The position numbers were made by a program, and so were the translations under genes. Below, one piece after another: positions 1,940-23,928 of a stretch of DNA of 24,000 nucleotides (position 1 is the first letter of the stretch; each line of letters begins with the position of its first letter). The notes under the pieces are model-generated. The model did not search any database. It was not told the origin of the DNA and saw nothing but the letters and a program-made list of their open reading frames with translations. The stretch lies in NCBI GenBank assembly GCA_947630475.1, contig CANRHR010000007.1, positions 95,826 through 119,825 of the forward strand, in the 5' to 3' direction. This stretch comes from an uncultured Clostridia bacterium. Lineage in GTDB: Bacteria; Bacillota; Clostridia; Lachnospirales; CAG-274.

Positions 1940-3640
1940 ATGGATTTTAAAAATAAAACAGCCGCTTTAATTGCCGCTGCCGATGATGCATTAAAAAAAG
2001 AAGAAATTGAAGCTATGATAGAAATTCCTGCCGACAATAAAATGGGTGATTTTGCTTTTCCTTGCTTTAGGCTTGCCAAAACTATGAAAAAGGCGCCTAA
2101 CTTAATAGCCGAAGAGCTTGCGCAAAAAATTGAAAAAAGTGATTTTATAGAAAGTATAAATGTTGTAAATGCATATATTAATTTTTTTATAAGCAAAGAA
2201 TTTTTAATGAAAAGCGTTATAGAAGAGATTAAAGAAAAAAAAGAAGCCTATGGAAGATGCAATATAGGCAAGGGCAAAAATATTGTTTTGGATTATTCAT
2301 CACCCAATATAGCTAAGCCGTTTCATGTTGGACATTTACGCTCTACTGTTATAGGAAATGCTCTTTATAATATTTTTAATGCAGTAGGGTATAATTCGGT
2401 CGGCATAAATCACCTTGGCGATTGGGGCACTCAATTTGGAAAGCTTATTGTCGCTTACAAAAAATGGGGCGATAAAGAGGTTATTGAAAGAGATGACATT
2501 AAAGAGTTAAGCCGCATTTATGTAAAATTCCATGAAGAGGCTCAAAACGATGAAAGCCTTAACGATGAAGCCAGATCATGGCTGGTTAAAATGCAGGAGG
2601 GCGACAAAGAAGCTCTTGAGCTTTGGAAATGGTTTTGCGATTTGAGTATGAAGGAATTTAACCGCATTTATAAAAGGCTTGGAATAAAGTTTGATTCTTA
2701 TGCAGGAGAAAGCTTTTATAATGATAAAATGCAGGCTGTTGTTGATGAATTGAAAGATAAAAATCTTCTTACAGAAAGCGAAGGCGCTCAAATTGTAAAT
2801 TTAGAAAAATATAATATGCCGCCATGCCTTATTTTAAGAAGCGACGGCGGAACTCTTTACCCAACAAGAGATATATCAGCCGCAATATACAGAAAAAAAA
2901 CATATGATTTTGATAAGTGCCTTTATATTACAGCGCTTGACCAAAATCTTCATTTTGCACAATGGTTTAAGGTTATAGAGCTTATGGGTTATGATTGGGC
3001 AAAAGATTTGGTTCATATTCCTTTTGGCCTTGTAAGCCTTGGCGACGGAAAGCTCTCAACAAGAGAGGGAAGAGTTGTTTTGATGGAGGATATCTTAAAC
3101 AGCAGCGTTGAAAAAACATTGAATATAATAGAAGAAAAAAATCCTAATCTTAAAAACAAGCAGCAAACAGCCGAACAGGTTGGTATAGGAGCGGTTATTT
3201 TTAATGATCTATATAACTCCAGAATAAAAAATGTTGTTTTTGACCTTGAAAGAATGTTAAGCTTTGAAGGTGAAACAGGACCTTATGTTCAATATACACA
3301 CGCCAGAGCCTGCAGCATTTTAAAAAAGGAAAATGTTTCTGAAATTGATTTTGATATTGATTACAGCAAAATTACAGATGAGGCAAGCGTTAATGTATGC
3401 AAGCTTTTATCTCAGTTTGGAGATAAAATAATAGACGCCGCCAATAAGTATGAACCTTATATTGTTACAAGGCATCTTGTTGATATATGCCAAGCGTTTA
3501 ATAAATTTTATAATGAAAATAATATTAAGCTAAGTGAAGGTGATTTGAAAAATGCGAGAATAGCCGTTGTTTATGCGGTTAAAACGGTTATTTCGGCAGG
3601 GCTTAAGCTTATCGGCGTAAGCGCACCGGCACAAATGTAA
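1940..3640 (+). CDS. argS: Arginine--tRNA ligase
   Basis: 566 aa with the class-I HIGH-type signature PFHVGHLRS, a KLSTREG (MSTR-type) motif and an ArgRS-like anticodon-binding C-terminus. GGAGG at 1928-1932 lies 7 nt before the ATG. Confidence 0.95.
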   Translation: MDFKNKTAALIAAADDALKKEEIEAMIEIPADNKMGDFAFPCFRLAKTMKKAPNLIAEELAQKIEKSDFIESINVVNAYINFFISKEFLMKSVIEEIKEKKEAYGRCNIGKGKNIVLDYSSPNIAKPFHVGHLRSTVIGNALYNIFNAVGYNSVGINHLGDWGTQFGKLIVAYKKWGDKEVIERDDIKELSRIYVKFHEEAQNDESLNDEARSWLVKMQEGDKEALELWKWFCDLSMKEFNRIYKRLGIKFDSYAGESFYNDKMQAVVDELKDKNLLTESEGAQIVNLEKYNMPPCLILRSDGGTLYPTRDISAAIYRKKTYDFDKCLYITALDQNLHFAQWFKVIELMGYDWAKDLVHIPFGLVSLGDGKLSTREGRVVLMEDILNSSVEKTLNIIEEKNPNLKNKQQTAEQVGIGAVIFNDLYNSRIKNVVFDLERMLSFEGETGPYVQYTHARACSILKKENVSEIDFDIDYSKITDEASVNVCKLLSQFGDKIIDAANKYEPYIVTRHLVDICQAFNKFYNENNIKLSEGDLKNARIAVVYAVKTVISAGLKLIGVSAPAQM

Positions 3641-3649
3641 AAAGCAATA

Positions 3650-3775: not shown

Positions 3776-3908
3776 ATATGTTAATTTTTGTTTTTATTAA
3801 ACTTTTTTTTATTTTAAGCGTATATATTTTTAAAATCGATGATATTTAAACTCTGTTTATGATTAGCCGCTTATTAAAAGAAAGAGTTTGCTTGTCGATA
3901 AAAGATAT

Positions 3909-3924
3909 TGTTTCACGTGAAACA
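3909..3924. promoter_or_regulatory. parS: parS centromere-like site (ParB/Spo0J binding)
   Basis: TGTTTCACGTGAAACA is a perfect 16-bp palindrome matching the Firmicutes parS consensus TGTTNCACGTGAAACA. It lies 28 nt upstream of the Zn-ribbon gene start. Confidence 0.85.
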
Positions 3925-3951
3925 TAATAAAAATTTAAGGGAGTGAAATTT

Positions 3952-4557
3952 ATGGAATGTAAAAATCATAAGGATAGGGCGGGCGTAAATACTTGTTGTG
4001 TGTGCGGCGATTGGATATGTGAAGAATGCAGCATTGAGCATAACTCAAGATTATACTGCCGAGATTGTTTTTTAAAAAAGGAAAAATCAGAAAAAGAAAA
4101 AGAAAAAGTAATGTTTCCGGATAAAAGACCAAGTACATTTTTGACATTTTGCTTTGCTTTTATACCTGGATGCGGACAAATGTATTTAGGCTTGATGAAG
4201 CGTGGTCTTGTTATTTTATCTATGTTTTTTGCAGCTTTATATTTTGCATCTATATTTGAAGTGTTTACTTATACTGGAATTATTATGTGGTTCTTTTCTT
4301 TCTTTGATGTGTTTAACAACAAAAATAAAATTGATTCGGGTAAAGGTATAGATGACAGCGTTAATGATATAAAAGCTTTTTTTGTTGAAAATAAACCGCT
4401 TATAATAGTAACCCTCGGCGCTGTGATGGCTATGGAAATTTTAAACCATGCAAGACTGAGATTGTTTAATTTTGATTTTGATATAAAAAATTTATTTTTT
4501 ATTTTGATTGTTATATTTATAATTTTTATTATTTCTAAAAAAGATAAAGAACAATAA
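3952..4557 (+). CDS. Zn-ribbon (B-box-like) membrane protein of unknown function
   Basis: The N-terminus has a Cys/His cluster, CKNH...CCVCGDWICEECSIEH...CRDC. A KE-rich linker and several hydrophobic helices follow (IPGCGQMYLGLMKRG...). Start moved from GTG 3943 to ATG 3952 because AAGGGAG lies at 3937-3943. Confidence 0.7.
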   Translation: MECKNHKDRAGVNTCCVCGDWICEECSIEHNSRLYCRDCFLKKEKSEKEKEKVMFPDKRPSTFLTFCFAFIPGCGQMYLGLMKRGLVILSMFFAALYFASIFEVFTYTGIIMWFFSFFDVFNNKNKIDSGKGIDDSVNDIKAFFVENKPLIIVTLGAVMAMEILNHARLRLFNFDFDIKNLFFILIVIFIIFIISKKDKEQ

Positions 4558-4860: not shown

Positions 4861-5160
4861 TTTTTATGATATAATATTTATTAATCTTAAGCGGTTACAA
4901 ATATCTTTGAAACAGTTATTTTAAAAGAAGAATAATACAAGCATTAATAATACTTAAAATATCGCATAAAATATTATTATAAATATATTTGCTTCGGCTT
5001 GAAGTCGTTTTTATACCGTATGCCGAAATGTATTTTAAGCAAAGGTTTTATCGAAAATCGTTTGTATGAGTATGCAGCAAGCAGAGCATAAATATCATTA
5101 ACTTTATAAATTACTTAACAGCCGCTTAATAAAAGTATAACAGAAATCGAGGTGAATTTT

Positions 5161-7540: not shown

Positions 7541-8362
7541 ATGAAATATGAATTTTTGCTGTTGGATTTGGATTTTACGCTTCTTGACAACAACAGAGAA
7601 ATATCCGAAAAAAACAGACAGGCAATTTTGAAAGCATCACAGCTTGGAGTAAAAACGGTTATTTGCACAGGAAGATCTTATATGTCGGCAGAAAAATTTA
7701 TAAGAAAATTGGATTTGAACAAAAAAGGAAATTATGCTGTTGCTTATAACGGAGGGCTTATTTATGAGCCCGAAAACAATAATATTATTATCGAACACAA
7801 ATTAGACAAAAAAATTGCTTTGAATATAGTTGAGAAGCTAAGAAAATTTGATGTCGGAATTATTGTATATGCCGCTGATATGCTTGTTATAGAGCAAAAA
7901 AGAAAGGAAATTGACCAATACTGTAAAATATCAGGATTGGAGCCTATGAAAATACAAAGATTTGAGGATTTTATACAGGATAATATATCAAAAGTGCTTG
8001 TTAAAGCCAATAATCCTAAAATTCTTGAAGAAATTGATACATATTTTAAAAATTCTTATCTGACCGATGAAGTTACCATGTTTTATTCAAGCAGTGATCT
8101 GTATGAATTTAATCCGCTTAATATAGACAAAGGAAGCGCTATTATTGAATTAAGTGAATTTACAGGCGTTGAGCTGAGTAAATTTATTGCCTGCGGAGAT
8201 AATTTTAATGATATCGGTATGATAAAAAATGCCGGACTTGGAGTTGCTGTTAAAAATGGAGTGGATGAAATAAAGGCGGCAGCGGATTATATAACACAAA
8301 GAACAAATGACGAAGATGCAATAGCAGAAGTAATTGAAAAGTTTATTTTAACCGGCAATTAA
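7541..8362 (+). CDS. Cof-type HAD-IIB family hydrolase (sugar phosphatase-like)
   Basis: Motif I DLDFTLL (DxDxT) near the N-terminus and GDNFNDIGM near the C-terminus. AAGGAGG (7528-7534) precedes ATG 7541, so TTG 7508 is rejected. Confidence 0.85.
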   Translation: MKYEFLLLDLDFTLLDNNREISEKNRQAILKASQLGVKTVICTGRSYMSAEKFIRKLDLNKKGNYAVAYNGGLIYEPENNNIIIEHKLDKKIALNIVEKLRKFDVGIIVYAADMLVIEQKRKEIDQYCKISGLEPMKIQRFEDFIQDNISKVLVKANNPKILEEIDTYFKNSYLTDEVTMFYSSSDLYEFNPLNIDKGSAIIELSEFTGVELSKFIACGDNFNDIGMIKNAGLGVAVKNGVDEIKAAADYITQRTNDEDAIAEVIEKFILTGN

Positions 8363-8540
8363 ATACCTCGCTTTTAGCGGGGTATTTTTGAGTGTCGAAA
8401 AAGTCTAAGCGGACTTTTTTGAGAGGGAAGTATAAAAGGTTCGTTCCGGCGGCTTTAAAAGCCTTGAAACTCGCCTTTTTCCTCGGCGAAAATGCGATCG
8501 CCTGCGGATTAAAAGTCTGCGACGCTTTAAGTTATTTGGT
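8361..8540. repeat. Family-2 structured repeat, copy 1 (terminator-like hairpin, GAGTGTCGAAAAA arm, ~105-nt core)
   Basis: Hairpin AAATACCTCGC/GCGGGGTATTT (8361-8387) with T5. Arm AGCGGGG..TTTGAGTGTCGAAAAA (8377-8402) matches 23349-23371 in the same orientation. Core 8431-8534 is the reverse complement of 23388-23494 at roughly 80% identity by eye. Confidence 0.7.
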
Positions 8541-8629
8541 TAAAATAAGGTTTATTGACAGTCTGAAACACTCCGCACTTTTAATATTTTATGTTTATTA
8601 AACGAACGTGTCGTTGATTTAAGTAGATA

Positions 8630-8658: not shown

Positions 8659-8667
8659 ATATTTATA

Positions 8668-8766
8668 GCAGAGTAGATTTGCAGGCGTTAAGTGTTTAAC
8701 GGACGGGGAGTTGCTGTTAAAACGAAAAGATTTTGTCTTGCGGTCTGTAAATCGCATCCCGCTGTT
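8668..8766 (+). promoter_or_regulatory. THF (tetrahydrofolate, folT-motif) riboswitch
   Basis: GCAGAGTAGATTTGCAGGCGTTAAGTG...GGGGAGTTGC...AACGAA...GCGG...AATCGCATCCCGCTG matches the conserved blocks I recall from the THF-I aptamer (AGAGUAGAU, GCGUUAAGUG, GGGAUGU, ACGAAG, AUUGCAUCCGCU). It sits directly upstream of a folate-type ECF S component. Confidence 0.8.
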
Positions 8767-21534: not shown

Positions 21535-22839
21535 ATGGCAGCAGGAGGTACTTTTTTAACACATAATAAGGTTTTGCCGGGAGCTTATATTAACTTTATT
21601 TCAAAAGCCAGAGCTTTGGGAACAATGGGCGAAAGAGGCACCGCAGCTTTTGCATGGATAAGCGACTGGGGAGATAAAAGCAAAATTTTGACAATTGAAA
21701 GCGGTGATTTTGAAAAAAATTGCCTCGAAATTTTTGGCTGCAGCTATGACAGTGACAAGGTTAAAAACATAAGAGAAGTTTTTGTTGGCGCAAATACAAT
21801 TAAAATTTTAATGCTTGGCCCGGATAAAAAGGCAAGCGCCGTTAAAGATGAATTTACAATTGAAGCAAAATATGGCGGCAGCAGAGGAAACAGCATTGTT
21901 ATAACAAGCGAAGCGCTGGTAGACGGCGGATTTTTGGTAAGCACTATTGTAGATGGCATGGTCGCTGATGAACAGACGGTTTCTAAATTTGATGAGCTTA
22001 AAGAAAATGCATTCGTTGTGTTTAAGGGCAGCGGCGATATGTTTGAAACAGCAGCCCTTAAACTTGAGGGAGGCTCTGACAAAGATATTACGGGAAATGA
22101 ATATTCCGATTTTATAGAAAAAATTGAGGCGGAAGATTTTACTACTATTATATATGACGGCAGCAATGAAACAACCAAAGGATTATTTGCAAGCTTTACA
22201 AAAAGAATGAGAGATGAAGAGGGTTATAAAATTACTTGCGTTTTGCATGATTATACAAAGGCTGATTTTGAAGGCATTATAAGCGTTAAAAATACTGTTG
22301 AAGGCGATAACCCTAATTCCCTTGTGTATTGGGTAGGAGGAAGAAATGCCGGAGCCGAGGTTAATGAAAGCCTGACTAATTTTTTATATGACGGAGAATA
22401 CAATATTGAAGCTGAGTTTAAAAAGAGTGAGCTTAAAGGCCTTATTCAGCAGGGACAATTTGTTCTGTACAAAGAACGAGATGATGTAAGAGTATTGAAG
22501 GATATAAATTCTTTTGTGAGCTTTGAAAGTGAGAAAAACAGCGATTTTTCAAACAATCAGATAATAAGAGTGCTTGATTCTGTAGCTAATGATACGGCAA
22601 GAATTTTTAATACGTATTATCTTGGAAAAACTCAAAACCATGAGCTTGGAAGAAGTATTTTTAAAGCTGAGCTTGTTAAATACCACGAGGATCTTCAAGC
22701 AATAGGAGCTATAACAAACTTTGATGCAGATGATATAGAGGTATCAAAGGGAACGGAAAAGGGCGACGTTGTTGTTAAGGAATATATAGAACCGGTTGCA
22801 GCTATGGATAAATTATATATGAGCTGTATTGTTGAATAA
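21535..22839 (+). CDS. Contractile tail sheath protein (XkdK-like)
   Basis: N-terminus GTFLTHNKVLPGAYINF is typical of phage sheath proteins. 434 aa, followed by the tube gene. Confidence 0.88.
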   Translation: MAAGGTFLTHNKVLPGAYINFISKARALGTMGERGTAAFAWISDWGDKSKILTIESGDFEKNCLEIFGCSYDSDKVKNIREVFVGANTIKILMLGPDKKASAVKDEFTIEAKYGGSRGNSIVITSEALVDGGFLVSTIVDGMVADEQTVSKFDELKENAFVVFKGSGDMFETAALKLEGGSDKDITGNEYSDFIEKIEAEDFTTIIYDGSNETTKGLFASFTKRMRDEEGYKITCVLHDYTKADFEGIISVKNTVEGDNPNSLVYWVGGRNAGAEVNESLTNFLYDGEYNIEAEFKKSELKGLIQQGQFVLYKERDDVRVLKDINSFVSFESEKNSDFSNNQIIRVLDSVANDTARIFNTYYLGKTQNHELGRSIFKAELVKYHEDLQAIGAITNFDADDIEVSKGTEKGDVVVKEYIEPVAAMDKLYMSCIVE

Positions 22840-22856
22840 AAAGGAGGCTTTTATTT

Positions 22857-23321
22857 ATGGGAACTTTGAAGGCTTGGGATGCCATTAACGGAGCAGAGGG
22901 AATATGTTATGCCGTTATAGACGGAAATCAGGAAGAAATGATTTATGTTAAAAACATAGAGGCTAAGATAGAAAAAGTTAAATCTGAAATTAAGGTGCTT
23001 GGACAAACAGGCGCTAAACATAAAGCTAACGGCTGGAAAGGCAGCGGAACTATGAATATGTATTATGTGACATCAGCTTTTAGAAGAATGATGGTTGAGT
23101 ATATTAAAACAGGCAAAGATACATATTTTGATTTGTATATTATAAATGAAGACCCATCAAGCGAAATCGGCAAACAACAAATTTGGCTTAAGCAGGTAAA
23201 TATTGACAGCATTGTTATAGGTAAGCTTGATATAGATTCTACTGAGCTTGATGAAGATATTCATTTTACATTTAATGATGTTAAGATTATGCAGGAATTT
23301 GACAAGGTTGTGGGTGAGTAA
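22857..23321 (+). CDS. Tail tube protein (XkdM-like)
   Basis: 154 aa. GTLKAWDAINGAEG...VLGQTGAKHKANGWKGSGTMNMYYVTSAFRRMM resembles the XkdM tube family. Confidence 0.85.
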   Translation: MGTLKAWDAINGAEGICYAVIDGNQEEMIYVKNIEAKIEKVKSEIKVLGQTGAKHKANGWKGSGTMNMYYVTSAFRRMMVEYIKTGKDTYFDLYIINEDPSSEIGKQQIWLKQVNIDSIVIGKLDIDSTELDEDIHFTFNDVKIMQEFDKVVGE

Positions 23322-23331
23322 TTTTTAACAA

Positions 23332-23500
23332 AAAGCCCTGCATAAAAAGCGGGGCTTTGAGTGTCGAAAAACCCTACTTTGAAAAAGTAACTTAAAGCAT
23401 CGCAGACTTATAATCCACAGGCGGGATTCACTTGCGCCGAGGAAAACAGCGAATTTCAAGGGATTTTTAATCCCGATGGAATGAGCTGTTTATACATCTA
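23332..23500. repeat. Family-2 structured repeat, copy 2 (inside the tail operon)
   Basis: Hairpin AAAGCCCTGC/GCGGGGCTTT (23332-23358), arm GAGTGTCGAAAAA (23359-23371), and core 23388-23494, which is the reverse complement of 8431-8534. Confidence 0.7.
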
Positions 23501-23520
23501 AATATTTGGGAGGATATGAA

Positions 23521-23928
23521 ATGACTTTACAAGAATTTTTAAACAGAAATACGGTAGATGGAATTACAAAAGAAACAGTTATCGGAGATAGATTTAAAGA
23601 TGAAAATGGCGGCGAATTTAAATTTGTAATAAAAGGCTTGACCCAAAAGGAGTTTAATGAGCTTAGAAAAAGAGCTTCAAGCTTTGATAAAAACGGAAGA
23701 ATGATTTTAAATGAAGGCTTGTTAAGTACATTATGTATAATAGAAAATACCGTTACGCCTAATTTTAAAGATGCAAAAAGTATTCAAGAACTTGGCTGCT
23801 CAACTCCCGAACAGTATTTAAACAAGGTGCTGCTTGCAGGAGAAGCCGAAAATCTTGCAAGAGAAATTTTACAGTTAAGCGGTTTTGGAAAAAATATAAA
23901 TGAACTGGTGGATGAGGCAAAAAACTGA
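23521..23928 (+). CDS. Tail assembly chaperone (XkdN-like), 0-frame product
   Basis: Located after the tube gene. 135 aa from ATG 23521, with GGAGG at 23509-23513. It ends in a canonical slippery heptamer. Confidence 0.8.
   Translation: MTLQEFLNRNTVDGITKETVIGDRFKDENGGEFKFVIKGLTQKEFNELRKRASSFDKNGRMILNEGLLSTLCIIENTVTPNFKDAKSIQELGCSTPEQYLNKVLLAGEAENLAREILQLSGFGKNINELVDEAKN
23919..23925 (+). promoter_or_regulatory. -1 programmed ribosomal frameshift slippery site A_AAA_AAC
   Basis: The 0-frame codons are GCA AAA AAC TGA. The heptamer has the X_XXY_YYZ phasing and lies one codon before the stop. Confidence 0.6.

Follow-up and report, generated by a model that had tools for sequence, protein, structure and literature searches.

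The locus raises the question of how a repeat can have its core inverted between two copies while one of its arms keeps the same orientation in both. A sequence-only reading had described such a repeat at two places in the 24-kb stretch of DNA analysed here (the window), taking it for an invertible or MITE-like element or for a structured RNA module. Both halves of that observation are real. By blastn, window positions 8427–8563 (+ strand) match 23498–23359 (− strand) over 141 nt with 76.6% identity (E = 3.7e-23), a MAFFT alignment of copy 1 with copy 2 gives 85% column identity across the core, and the two longest inverted repeats listed for the window, I1 and I2, are this same pair. The same-orientation arm is likewise present in both copies, each time with a preceding G+C-rich hairpin, and yields a 16-nt exact direct match, TTTGAGTGTCGAAAAA, at 8387–8402 and 23356–23371 (E = 0.005). 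We consider it highly probable (roughly 0.85) that the two repeats are oppositely oriented copies of an IS1182-derived MITE, mobilised in trans by an IS1182-family DDE transposase, a reading that resolves the "half-inverted" repeat into ordinary transposon anatomy.

Copy 1 is a complete element of 178 nt (8388–8565, + strand) whose ends were set by alignment with two genomic copies, L025 and L032, which match the whole window element at 79–82%, and with the ends of full-length insertion sequences (ISs). Its left terminal inverted repeat (TIR), TTGAGTGTCGAAAAAGTC (8388–8405, + strand), is common to the IS1182-like elements L122, where it reads CAGCGTGTCGAAAAAGTC, and L221; its right TIR, GGTTTATTGACAGTCTG (8549–8565, + strand), is the inverted counterpart and reads CAGACTGTCAATAAACC when reverse-complemented. 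The motif GAGTGTCGAAAAA stands in inverted orientation at both ends of copy 1, as terminal inverted repeats of about 17 nt. A left subterminal hairpin, TCGAAAAAGTC-TAAGCG-GACTTTTTTGA (8395–8422, + strand; the I16 arm in the repeat listing), recurs at the equivalent position in L025 and L032 and, in the full-length IS L122, at the left end. It is followed by a structured core with stems P1, P1b, P2, P3 and P4 (8432–8535, + strand; covariance model R1, 46.1 bits, E ~1e-9), within which a hyper-conserved 34-nt module that includes P4, CCTGCGGATTAAAAGTCTGCGACGCTTTAAGTTA (8501–8534, + strand), is 94–100% identical across more than 40 loci in at least five MAGs.

Copy 2 is the same element flipped (23357–23498, − strand, 142 nt), without the left ~45 nt that hold the left TIR and subterminal hairpin. 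The sole TIR it retains is the right one (23357–23374, − strand), which reads TTGAGTGTCGAAAAACCC on the + strand, and its core lies at 23387–23493 (− strand; model R1, 41.4 bits, E ~3e-8). Because copy 2 is the whole element flipped and the element carries TIRs at both ends, the same motif comes to stand beside its flank. What had looked like a core inverted within a fixed left arm is thus a TIR motif that occurs at both ends, joined to part of a host hairpin: the AGCGGGG seen in both arms lies outside the element and comes from the 3′ half of a host terminator hairpin, a different one at each copy. The element itself has no protein-coding capacity. The sole ORF in copy 1, of 69 aa at 8392–8601, is not conserved, as had been proposed; copy 2 has indels, and even within the 34 nt best conserved across the family a 1-nt indel (ATTAAAAGTC vs ATTAAAGTC) shifts the frame, which together rule out a coding reading.

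Each window copy keeps a terminator-like hairpin, of host target sequence, on one side only. The left end of copy 1 abuts AAATACCTCGCT-TTT-AGCGGGGTATTT (8361–8387, + strand, −14.9 kcal/mol), downstream of a Cof-type HAD hydrolase gene, and the copy thus sits behind the HAD-hydrolase terminator and upstream of a THF riboswitch and folT. The right end of copy 2 abuts AAAGCCCTGC-ATAAAAA-GCGGGGCTTT (23332–23358, + strand, −17.1 kcal/mol), downstream of a phage tail-tube gene (PF09393 upstream, PF08890 downstream), and this copy lies behind the tail-tube gene terminator in the orientation opposite to that of copy 1. No target-site duplication was detectable at either window copy; a by-eye resemblance between the flanks of copy 1 did not rise above shuffles, these flanks aligning no better than shuffled sequence. 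The one-sided hairpins and the loss of the left end from copy 2 indicate that both copies are probably old and immobile. No transposase was matched by tblastn within the 24-kb window, and a search through HAD-hydrolase homologues returned no orthologous empty site, upstream synteny being kept and the downstream genes differing.

The element belongs to a multi-copy family. A genome scan recovered 48 loci, of which 28 are in the MAG CASFCZ01, 12 in CABREJ01, three in CANRCU01 and two in CABUWB01, and a metagenome scan with the left TIR as query gave at least 120 loci. The hosts are related uncultured gut Clostridia with tens of copies per genome. Family members are roughly 140–450 nt long, with measured sizes of 146–449 nt, are intergenic and encode no transposase, and no transposase gene (TnpB or other) was found beside the copies in the MAG loci, where the neighbours are housekeeping genes. 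Variation within the family is modular, with whole hairpins added within loops, and other sub-families combine these TIRs with unrelated hairpin modules. Orientation with respect to the terminator is not fixed: one-directional gene contexts, the window included, gave three forward and three reverse, and orientation by the T-tract gave 11 vs 5. Neither the window element nor a complete CASFCZ01 copy had a blastn match in phage and plasmid collections, and a first scan of viral contigs with TTTTCCTCGGCGNAANTG gave only chance matches of 18–25 nt.

Several features of the flanks bear on how the element chooses its target. Every element end in the family abuts a hairpin resembling an intrinsic terminator, and the earlier suggestion of a MITE-like element tied to terminator hairpins is upheld. 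The whole hairpin is duplicated in 15 of 20 complete MAG copies and in 23 of 43 metagenome copies. A pooled recount gave 40 non-redundant copies with such duplications; the direct repeats that abut the element are 19–41 nt long (median 29) and the duplicated hairpins fold at −5 to −32 kcal/mol. The duplicated hairpin differs from locus to locus and is the same on both sides of one copy; the flanks have no conserved tetra- or pentanucleotide target, and shape is the sole feature they share. These 19–41-nt flank repeats are whole-hairpin target-site duplications. About half of the metagenome copies are without matching flanks, which we tentatively attribute to assembly chimeras or recombination between copies; most copies with unpaired flanks still abut a hairpin, and their odd flank corresponds to a duplication present at a different locus. 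In about 6 of the 40 flank pairs (about 15%), and also in L221, the loop of one flanking hairpin is the reverse complement of the loop in the other, an arrangement that is not predicted by simple gap repair.

The transposase that is missing from the window is seen in related elements of about 1.5 kb. One of these, L122 (1561 bp), has the left TIR and hairpin of the MITE, a right end that reads GGGTTTTCTCGACAGACTG and CCGGATATCCGGTCT in both flanks. The ORF of L122 is frameshifted; it has Pfam matches to DUF772 and DDE_Tnp_1_6 and reaches 321.7 bits with the NCBIfam model for IS1182 family transposases (NF033551, cut-off 270). A second, L221 (1509 bp), has AGGTTCGCGC-loop-GCGCGAACCT on both sides. 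Besides L122, the elements L070, L217, L218, L219, L221 and L222 are full-length relatives with hairpins at their ends, and L122 and L221 have the left TIR with its hairpin and the right TIR in common with the MITE. What the full-length ISs share with the MITE is confined to the termini and the left hairpin, and does not extend to the core or the 34-nt module. The hosts of L122, L070 and L221 are other, G+C-richer organisms, and the ORFs are frameshifted or split. In ISfinder, direct repeats of 0–60 bp are reportedly listed for IS1182.

From these observations we infer both mobilisation in trans and a chemistry at the foot of a cruciform. The transposase would recognise a stem-loop or cruciform by its shape and not by its sequence, and would join each of the two transposon 3′ ends to one strand, at the 5′ foot of an extruded hairpin. 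The whole hairpin would then be copied by gap repair, such that the length of the duplication (19–41 bp) would equal that of the hairpin. An insertion bracketed by terminators in this way would be nearly neutral, which would explain why the copies are intergenic and lie at gene ends. That the duplications vary in length along with the hairpins argues strongly that strand transfer is directed by shape and takes place at the foot of a cruciform or hairpin. Through these elements gene ends gain new or doubled terminators, among them a site within a phage tail operon; the elements also break metagenome assemblies and make chimeric contigs in MAGs of gut Clostridia.

The core is a module of several hairpins that co-vary. 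The double changes that had been pointed out between the two copies, GGCTT/AAGCC (8451–8455 with 8459–8463) against GGGAT/ATCCC (23460–23464 with 23470–23474), are correct and are one instance of several: in the outer stem, AAAAGG/CCTTTT of copy 1 corresponds to AAACAGC/GCTGTTT of copy 2, and in the middle stem GTT/AAC corresponds to ATT/AAT. A CGCC..GGCG..CGCC triple said to be retained in both copies is not, since the first unit of copy 2 is CGCT, and the first CGCC of the family is part of stem P1 and not of an alternative hairpin. For the family we aligned the core with a hand-annotated seed and a covariance model in place of RNAalifold on a plain MAFFT alignment, in which the variable stems were mis-registered. 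The covariance-model alignment has double changes in 26 of 37 pairs, bearing out the proposal of a conserved structure, and 92.8% of its cells are paired, compared with 74.7% in shuffles and ~43% when the partners are slid. The core belongs to the element, and it could work in cis, as a DNA structure that a structure-reading transposase recognises, or else as an RNA. That the core and the near-invariant 34-nt module constitute a selected structural device, whether a folded DNA signal required on the donor by a shape-reading IS1182-type transposase, as a counterpart to its reading of hairpins on the target, or an RNA that the duplicated terminator ends, is a tentative proposal that we regard as rather unlikely. 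If true, it would describe a transposon family that recognises both donor and target by structure, and there would be direct sequence evidence for a route of whole-stem-loop duplication previously only modelled. The invariant module and the co-varying core can both be put to the test.

The alternative that survives best would add to the MITE reading and not replace it: the core would be a functional small or cis-regulatory RNA spread by the MITE, with selection keeping P1–P4 and the 34-nt module. The excess of pairing over shuffles and the frequent double changes are consistent with this, and between species the module holds at 94–100% identity in the MAGs, in contrast to the diverging TIRs. 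Because three G.U pairs are needed for P4, it would form on one strand only, and two C-to-U changes seen in it keep the pairing; P4 is also counted on the other side, as a stem that never varies. A duplicated right-hand terminator would end a left-to-right transcript, and the addition of whole hairpins in loops is the kind of modular variation that points the same way. Against an RNA stand the lack of a conserved promoter, which was looked for, including by inspection, the occurrence of copies in both orientations relative to the flanking genes, and the unrelated hairpin modules carried by other sub-families with the same TIRs. Rfam 15, searched at gathering and permissive thresholds, matches no family to the element: in the window only the THF riboswitch at 8667–8766 passes and the elements reach at most 21 bits, and the 13 loci with complete copies gave tRNAs only. 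For the single copies, fold z-scores on the top strand (−0.5 and −1.4) are unremarkable. Counting columns in the stems that co-vary gives 12 with G.U against 11 with A.C, a balance that favours neither strand and makes these counts uninformative for strand assignment. Palindromes can, moreover, stay perfect without selection, through template switching that corrects quasi-palindromes. On balance we think a functional RNA doubtful.

Returning to the MITE as the preferred account of the two window copies, we find a site-specific invertible segment, in which either the core turns over between arms that stay in place or the copies invert the 15-kb interval between them, highly improbable. The cores do form inverted repeats 14.8 kb apart, and in L067, a contig of another sample, copy 1 is interrupted by an abnormal junction, but the TIRs account for the apparent fixed arm, and all complete copies, those of other genomes included, have their parts in one and the same order. 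The interval had also been put forward as a substrate for a large inversion; the two copies are, however, 77% identical with a longest exact inverted match of 12 nt, and at both copies the window is matched collinearly by three independent metagenome contigs (L064, L065 and L066). At the L067 junction two left halves stand head-to-head, that of copy 1 and that of a third copy, which is 85% identical to copy 2 and has its left boundary where copy 2 does, AGATGTATAAA; an unrelated gene follows. This is not the product of an inversion between copies 1 and 2. An IS200/IS605-type derivative (PATE, REP-like, or an orphan TnpB/IscB guide RNA) would fit the subterminal hairpins, the highly structured body and the flank directly after the right end, but it is just as improbable given clear TIRs and long target duplications, both of which that family lacks, no TnpA, TnpB or IscB gene beside any copy, no conserved tetra- or pentanucleotide at the flanks, no match to HEARO or another Rfam family, and a DDE transposase in the autonomous relative.

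Among known systems, bacterial class C group II introns also recognise structure and insert just downstream of intrinsic-terminator stem-loops, but they consist of a ribozyme with a reverse transcriptase, have no TIRs and make no duplication, whereas the window element is far smaller and has a DDE partner. In CRISPR repeat duplication by Cas1–Cas2 and in casposons, staggered transfers border a ~30-bp and often palindromic unit, and gap repair duplicates that unit; the geometry is alike as an analogy only, since the enzyme family is unrelated, the target is fixed and no cas genes are present here. SPRITE resembles the window family in being a small dispersed repeat tied to terminator-like hairpins (PMC10969869). 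SPRITE is itself terminator-like, however, whereas the hairpins of the window family are locus-specific host sequence that flanks the element. The classical bacterial MITEs Correia, RUP, ERIC and bcr1 are likewise small, TIR-bounded, intergenic, multi-copy and hairpin-forming (PMC10969869) but make duplications that are short and constant in length (TA, for example), and among the MITEs described in that 2024 review there is none that duplicates a terminator hairpin. The IS1182-derived MITEs of Methanosarcina (partner ISMac2; PMC3852290) are also short and non-autonomous, at 160–169 bp with ~25-bp inverted repeats; they differ in having archaeal hosts and direct repeats of 4 or 0 bp, and neither hairpin duplication nor a conserved internal structure is reported for them.

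IS1272/TnSha1 of Staphylococcus has an IS1182-family DDE transposase and targets stem-loops, mostly terminators, that are chosen by shape, and it lies directly downstream of genes in both orientations (PMC4923244, PMC5678879), inserting into terminator hairpins without sequence specificity (PMC4923244). IS1272 is a 1.9-kb autonomous IS, in contrast to the MITE of 140–180 nt in the window. IS1182 relatives are active with or without target duplication (PMC12056078), and in the published model one route leads to duplication of the entire stem-loop (PMC5678879, Fig. 13 pathway b). With IS1272 the target stem-loop is lost in whole or in part and no duplication results, whereas the Clostridia family keeps the stem-loop and mostly duplicates it in full. 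Hairpin targeting has thus been known for IS1272 with the hairpin deleted and duplication only as a branch of the published model; the copies analysed here document, for many natural insertions of an IS1182-type element, the duplication of an entire terminator hairpin.

We read the two opposite-facing repeats in the window (copy 1 and copy 2) as MITEs of an IS1182-type insertion sequence. They align by blastn over 141 nt (8427-8563 on the plus strand with 23498-23359 on the minus strand; 76.6% identity, E=3.7e-23), are 85% identical in the core by MAFFT and constitute the longest inverted repeats found in a repeat search of the whole window; blastn also returns an exact direct match of 16 nt, TTTGAGTGTCGAAAAA, at 8387-8402 and 23356-23371. 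The sequence-only reading had described these repeat sequences correctly, as reading both regions confirms, and had proposed that the core is inverted while the left arm keeps its orientation. An alignment that sets the left end and the reverse-complemented right end of copy 1 beside the left side of copy 2 accounts for that pattern differently, as one motif is present at both copy 1 ends in inverted orientation and copy 2 is flipped. With terminal inverted repeats (TIRs) at 8388-8405 (TTGAGTGTCGAAAAAGTC) and 8549-8565 (GGTTTATTGACAGTCTG), copy 1 is therefore a 178-nt element spanning 8388-8565. Copy 2 (23357-23498, minus strand) is the same element without ~45 nt of the left end, so that the left TIR and subterminal hairpin are missing; because its right TIR adjoins the upstream flank, an arm of fixed orientation appears to accompany an inverted core.

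In both copies the motif follows AGCGGGG, which lies outside the element and forms the 3' half of a different terminator-like hairpin in each: that at 8361-8387 (-14.9 kcal/mol) follows a gene for a Cof-type HAD hydrolase, and that at 23332-23358 (-17.1 kcal/mol) follows a phage tail-tube gene. Downstream of copy 1 by ~100 nt is a THF riboswitch (8667-8766, plus strand; Rfam RF01831, 94.4 bits) followed by a folT-like ECF S-component gene, so that the MITE has the terminator of the HAD gene on one side and the promoter region of the riboswitch on the other. Copy 2 is located inside a phage-like tail module (21535-23928), where a terminator hairpin separates the tail-tube (PF09393) and tail-assembly-chaperone (PF08890) genes, and the ribosome-binding site of the chaperone gene begins a few bases past the truncated end. 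No target duplication was detectable in the flanks of either window copy, and comparison of HAD-hydrolase homologues yielded no empty insertion site.

A genome scan using a 19-mer from the conserved core, with one genome per species, returned 48 loci, among them 28 copies in CASFCZ01 (an uncultured Eubacteriales MAG), 12 in MGYG-HGUT-01183 (CABREJ01), three loci in the rabbit-gut Clostridia MAG CANRCU01 and two in CABUWB01. Two loci (L025 and L032) are 79-82% identical to the entire window element; in the other MAGs, what is shared is the overall architecture and, at 94-100% identity, a 34-nt module, CCTGCGGATTAAAGTCTGCGACGCTTTAAGTTA, the remaining sequence having diverged. Complete copies are 180-385 nt long and sited between ordinary genes, with no transposase gene adjacent to them in the MAG loci, and phage and plasmid collections contained nothing similar to the element. 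Many family loci lie at the end of a contig, which is where a repeat that disrupts assembly would be expected. At many loci from the core 19-mer and left-TIR scans the contig has a terminus within the element (that of L015 starts at window 8444), often ~50 nt into the left TIR. The element fragments metagenome assemblies and yields mismatched flanks (L119/L141, L112/L203, L182/L166). On a CANRCU01 contig (L019), three tandem 37-nt units of the 3' module, GTCTGCGACGCTTTAAGTCAGTTGTAAATAAAAATTC, occupy ~4230-4340 (minus strand) near a second core copy at 3550-3648. In L166 (2277-3980), a left-TIR copy ends after ~100 nt and is followed by a 521-aa opposite-strand ORF resembling a large serine recombinase.

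Complete copies have a hairpin directly before the left end and the same hairpin directly after the right end. This hairpin is locus-specific (in L032, AAATACCCCGCCAAAATGCGGGGTATT on both sides), and the element has no fixed orientation with respect to the terminator or the flanking genes. Among 20 complete MAG copies, 15 are bounded by direct repeats of 20-41 nt that abut the element and fold at -9 to -18 kcal/mol. At least 120 loci matched the left TIR in a metagenome scan; among the matches listed, 23 of 43 non-redundant complete copies carry abutting repeats of 19-40 nt (-11 to -32 kcal/mol), and most of the remainder are nonetheless abutted by a hairpin on one side or both. Where flanks do not match, several are identical to the duplication of another locus, indicating chimeric contigs or recombination between copies. 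In MAG and metagenome loci together, whole-hairpin duplications (median 29 nt) flank 40 non-redundant copies. For IS1182, ISfinder records direct repeats of 0-60 bp. In ~15% of flank pairs the stems are identical and the loops reverse-complemented (e.g. TTT and AAA, or TAA and TTA), as in L026, L038, L041, L106, L135, L141 and the insertion sequence in L221 (2405-2426 and 3936-3957). Such loops would not be expected if a staggered cut were simply repaired by gap filling; they may have arisen when the palindrome loop flipped at a later time, or through fold-back synthesis.

The likely source of transposase is provided by full-length insertion sequences with the same ends. The metagenome locus L122 contains a 1561-bp element with left end CAGCGTGTCGAAAAAGTCC, followed by a hairpin, and right end GGGTTTTCTCGACAGACTG; CCGGATATCCGGTCT is present in both flanks. 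The ORF of this element, which is frameshifted, has matches to Pfam DUF772 and DDE_Tnp_1_6 and scores 321.7 bits against the NCBIfam IS1182 family transposase model NF033551 (cut-off 270). Relatives occur in viral contigs, where hairpins abut the located ends on the left (L217, L219, L221) or right (L218, L221, L222); the 1509-bp element of L221 has AGGTTCGCGC-loop-GCGCGAACCT on both sides. Alignments of the ends show that the left TIR, left subterminal hairpin and right TIR are common to the window element and these insertion sequences, from which the core and 34-nt module are absent. In L070, ~8.5 kb carrying a tyrosine-integrase-like gene interrupts an IS1182-like copy close to the left end of that copy (5009-5072; 13586 onward), with similar short sequences, TTTATATGGTAAAATAA and TTTATGGTATAATAA, at the two junctions; the insert looks like an integrative element or prophage within the insertion sequence.

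A covariance model of the core built from a hand-annotated seed finds copy 1 and copy 2 at 46.1 and 41.4 bits on the expected strands. In an alignment of 30 distinct sequences guided by, and thus fitted to, this model, 92.8% of cells pair, versus 74.7% in shuffles and ~43% when partners are slid. Both-side changes occur in 26 of 37 pairs (7/7 in stem P1, 12/12 in P1b and P2, 6/8 in P3), though some differences between sub-families may be hairpin replacements rather than substitutions. True compensatory substitutions are visible within the window sub-family: those quoted in the sequence-only reading are correct and others exist in the outer and middle stems, whereas the CGCC..GGCG..CGCC triple it claimed for both copies is not retained in copy 2. 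Stem P4 is invariant and needs three G.U pairs. A functional RNA made from the core would be compatible with the MITE reading, and the paired stems are what it would predict; we consider it rather unlikely. Balanced numbers of columns with G.U (12) and with A.C (11) mean that the core can be assigned neither to a strand nor to RNA rather than DNA, and the suggested structured ncRNA has no matching Rfam family. Other sub-families combine the same TIRs with unrelated hairpin modules. Within the 34-nt module (window 8501-8534), which includes P4, all related loci contain AGTCTG, the six bases that end the right TIR, and by eye the module resembles the inner left end of other sub-families (AAAGTCGACACGCTTGCAAG); the module could serve as an internal site for the transposase or as an alternative end.

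We reject both an invertible switch and a 15-kb inversion between the copies, as first envisaged: the TIRs account for the half-inverted pattern, exact inverted matches extend to no more than 12 nt, and contigs L064, L065 and L066 are collinear with the window. The abnormal junction in L067, from another sample, is of a different kind. There, positions 3800-4100 correspond to window 8340-8498 before passing into another locus: the loop of hairpin P3 is the point at which two left halves meet head-to-head, that of copy 1 and that of a third copy (85% identity with copy 2), after which comes an unrelated gene on the minus strand. Either the assembly is chimeric at a palindrome or the palindromic rearrangement is real. 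Copy 2 and this third copy share their left boundary, AGATGTATAAA, a hint of a short sub-family that uses an internal pseudo-end. An IS200/IS605-type origin is rejected by the TIRs, the duplications and the DDE partner.

For the IS1182-type MITE, we infer a transposition chemistry in which the element's clade takes a 5'-foot route, so that duplication length would equal hairpin length. Insertion would leave a terminator on each side and hence be close to neutral. The window copies are probably old, each having lost one hairpin copy, and copy 2 would also have lost its left end.

Hairpin targeting is already known for the IS1182 family, in which IS1272/TnSha1 undergoes shape-directed insertion into terminator hairpins in both orientations (PMC4923244, PMC5678879); it deletes the target stem-loop, whereas the present family in most copies duplicates the whole hairpin. 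The published model nevertheless contains a branch in which the entire stem-loop becomes duplicated (PMC5678879). IS1182 relatives transpose with or without duplication (PMC12056078). MITEs of IS1182 origin have been described as well; their direct repeats are 4 or 0 bp long (PMC3852290), in contrast to the whole-hairpin duplications (median 29 nt) found here, and no element listed in a 2024 review of prokaryotic MITEs (PMC10969869) duplicates a terminator hairpin. What is new relative to these systems is a clade of MITEs and insertion sequences that duplicates whole terminator hairpins and, in its MITEs, a conserved structured core with an invariant module.
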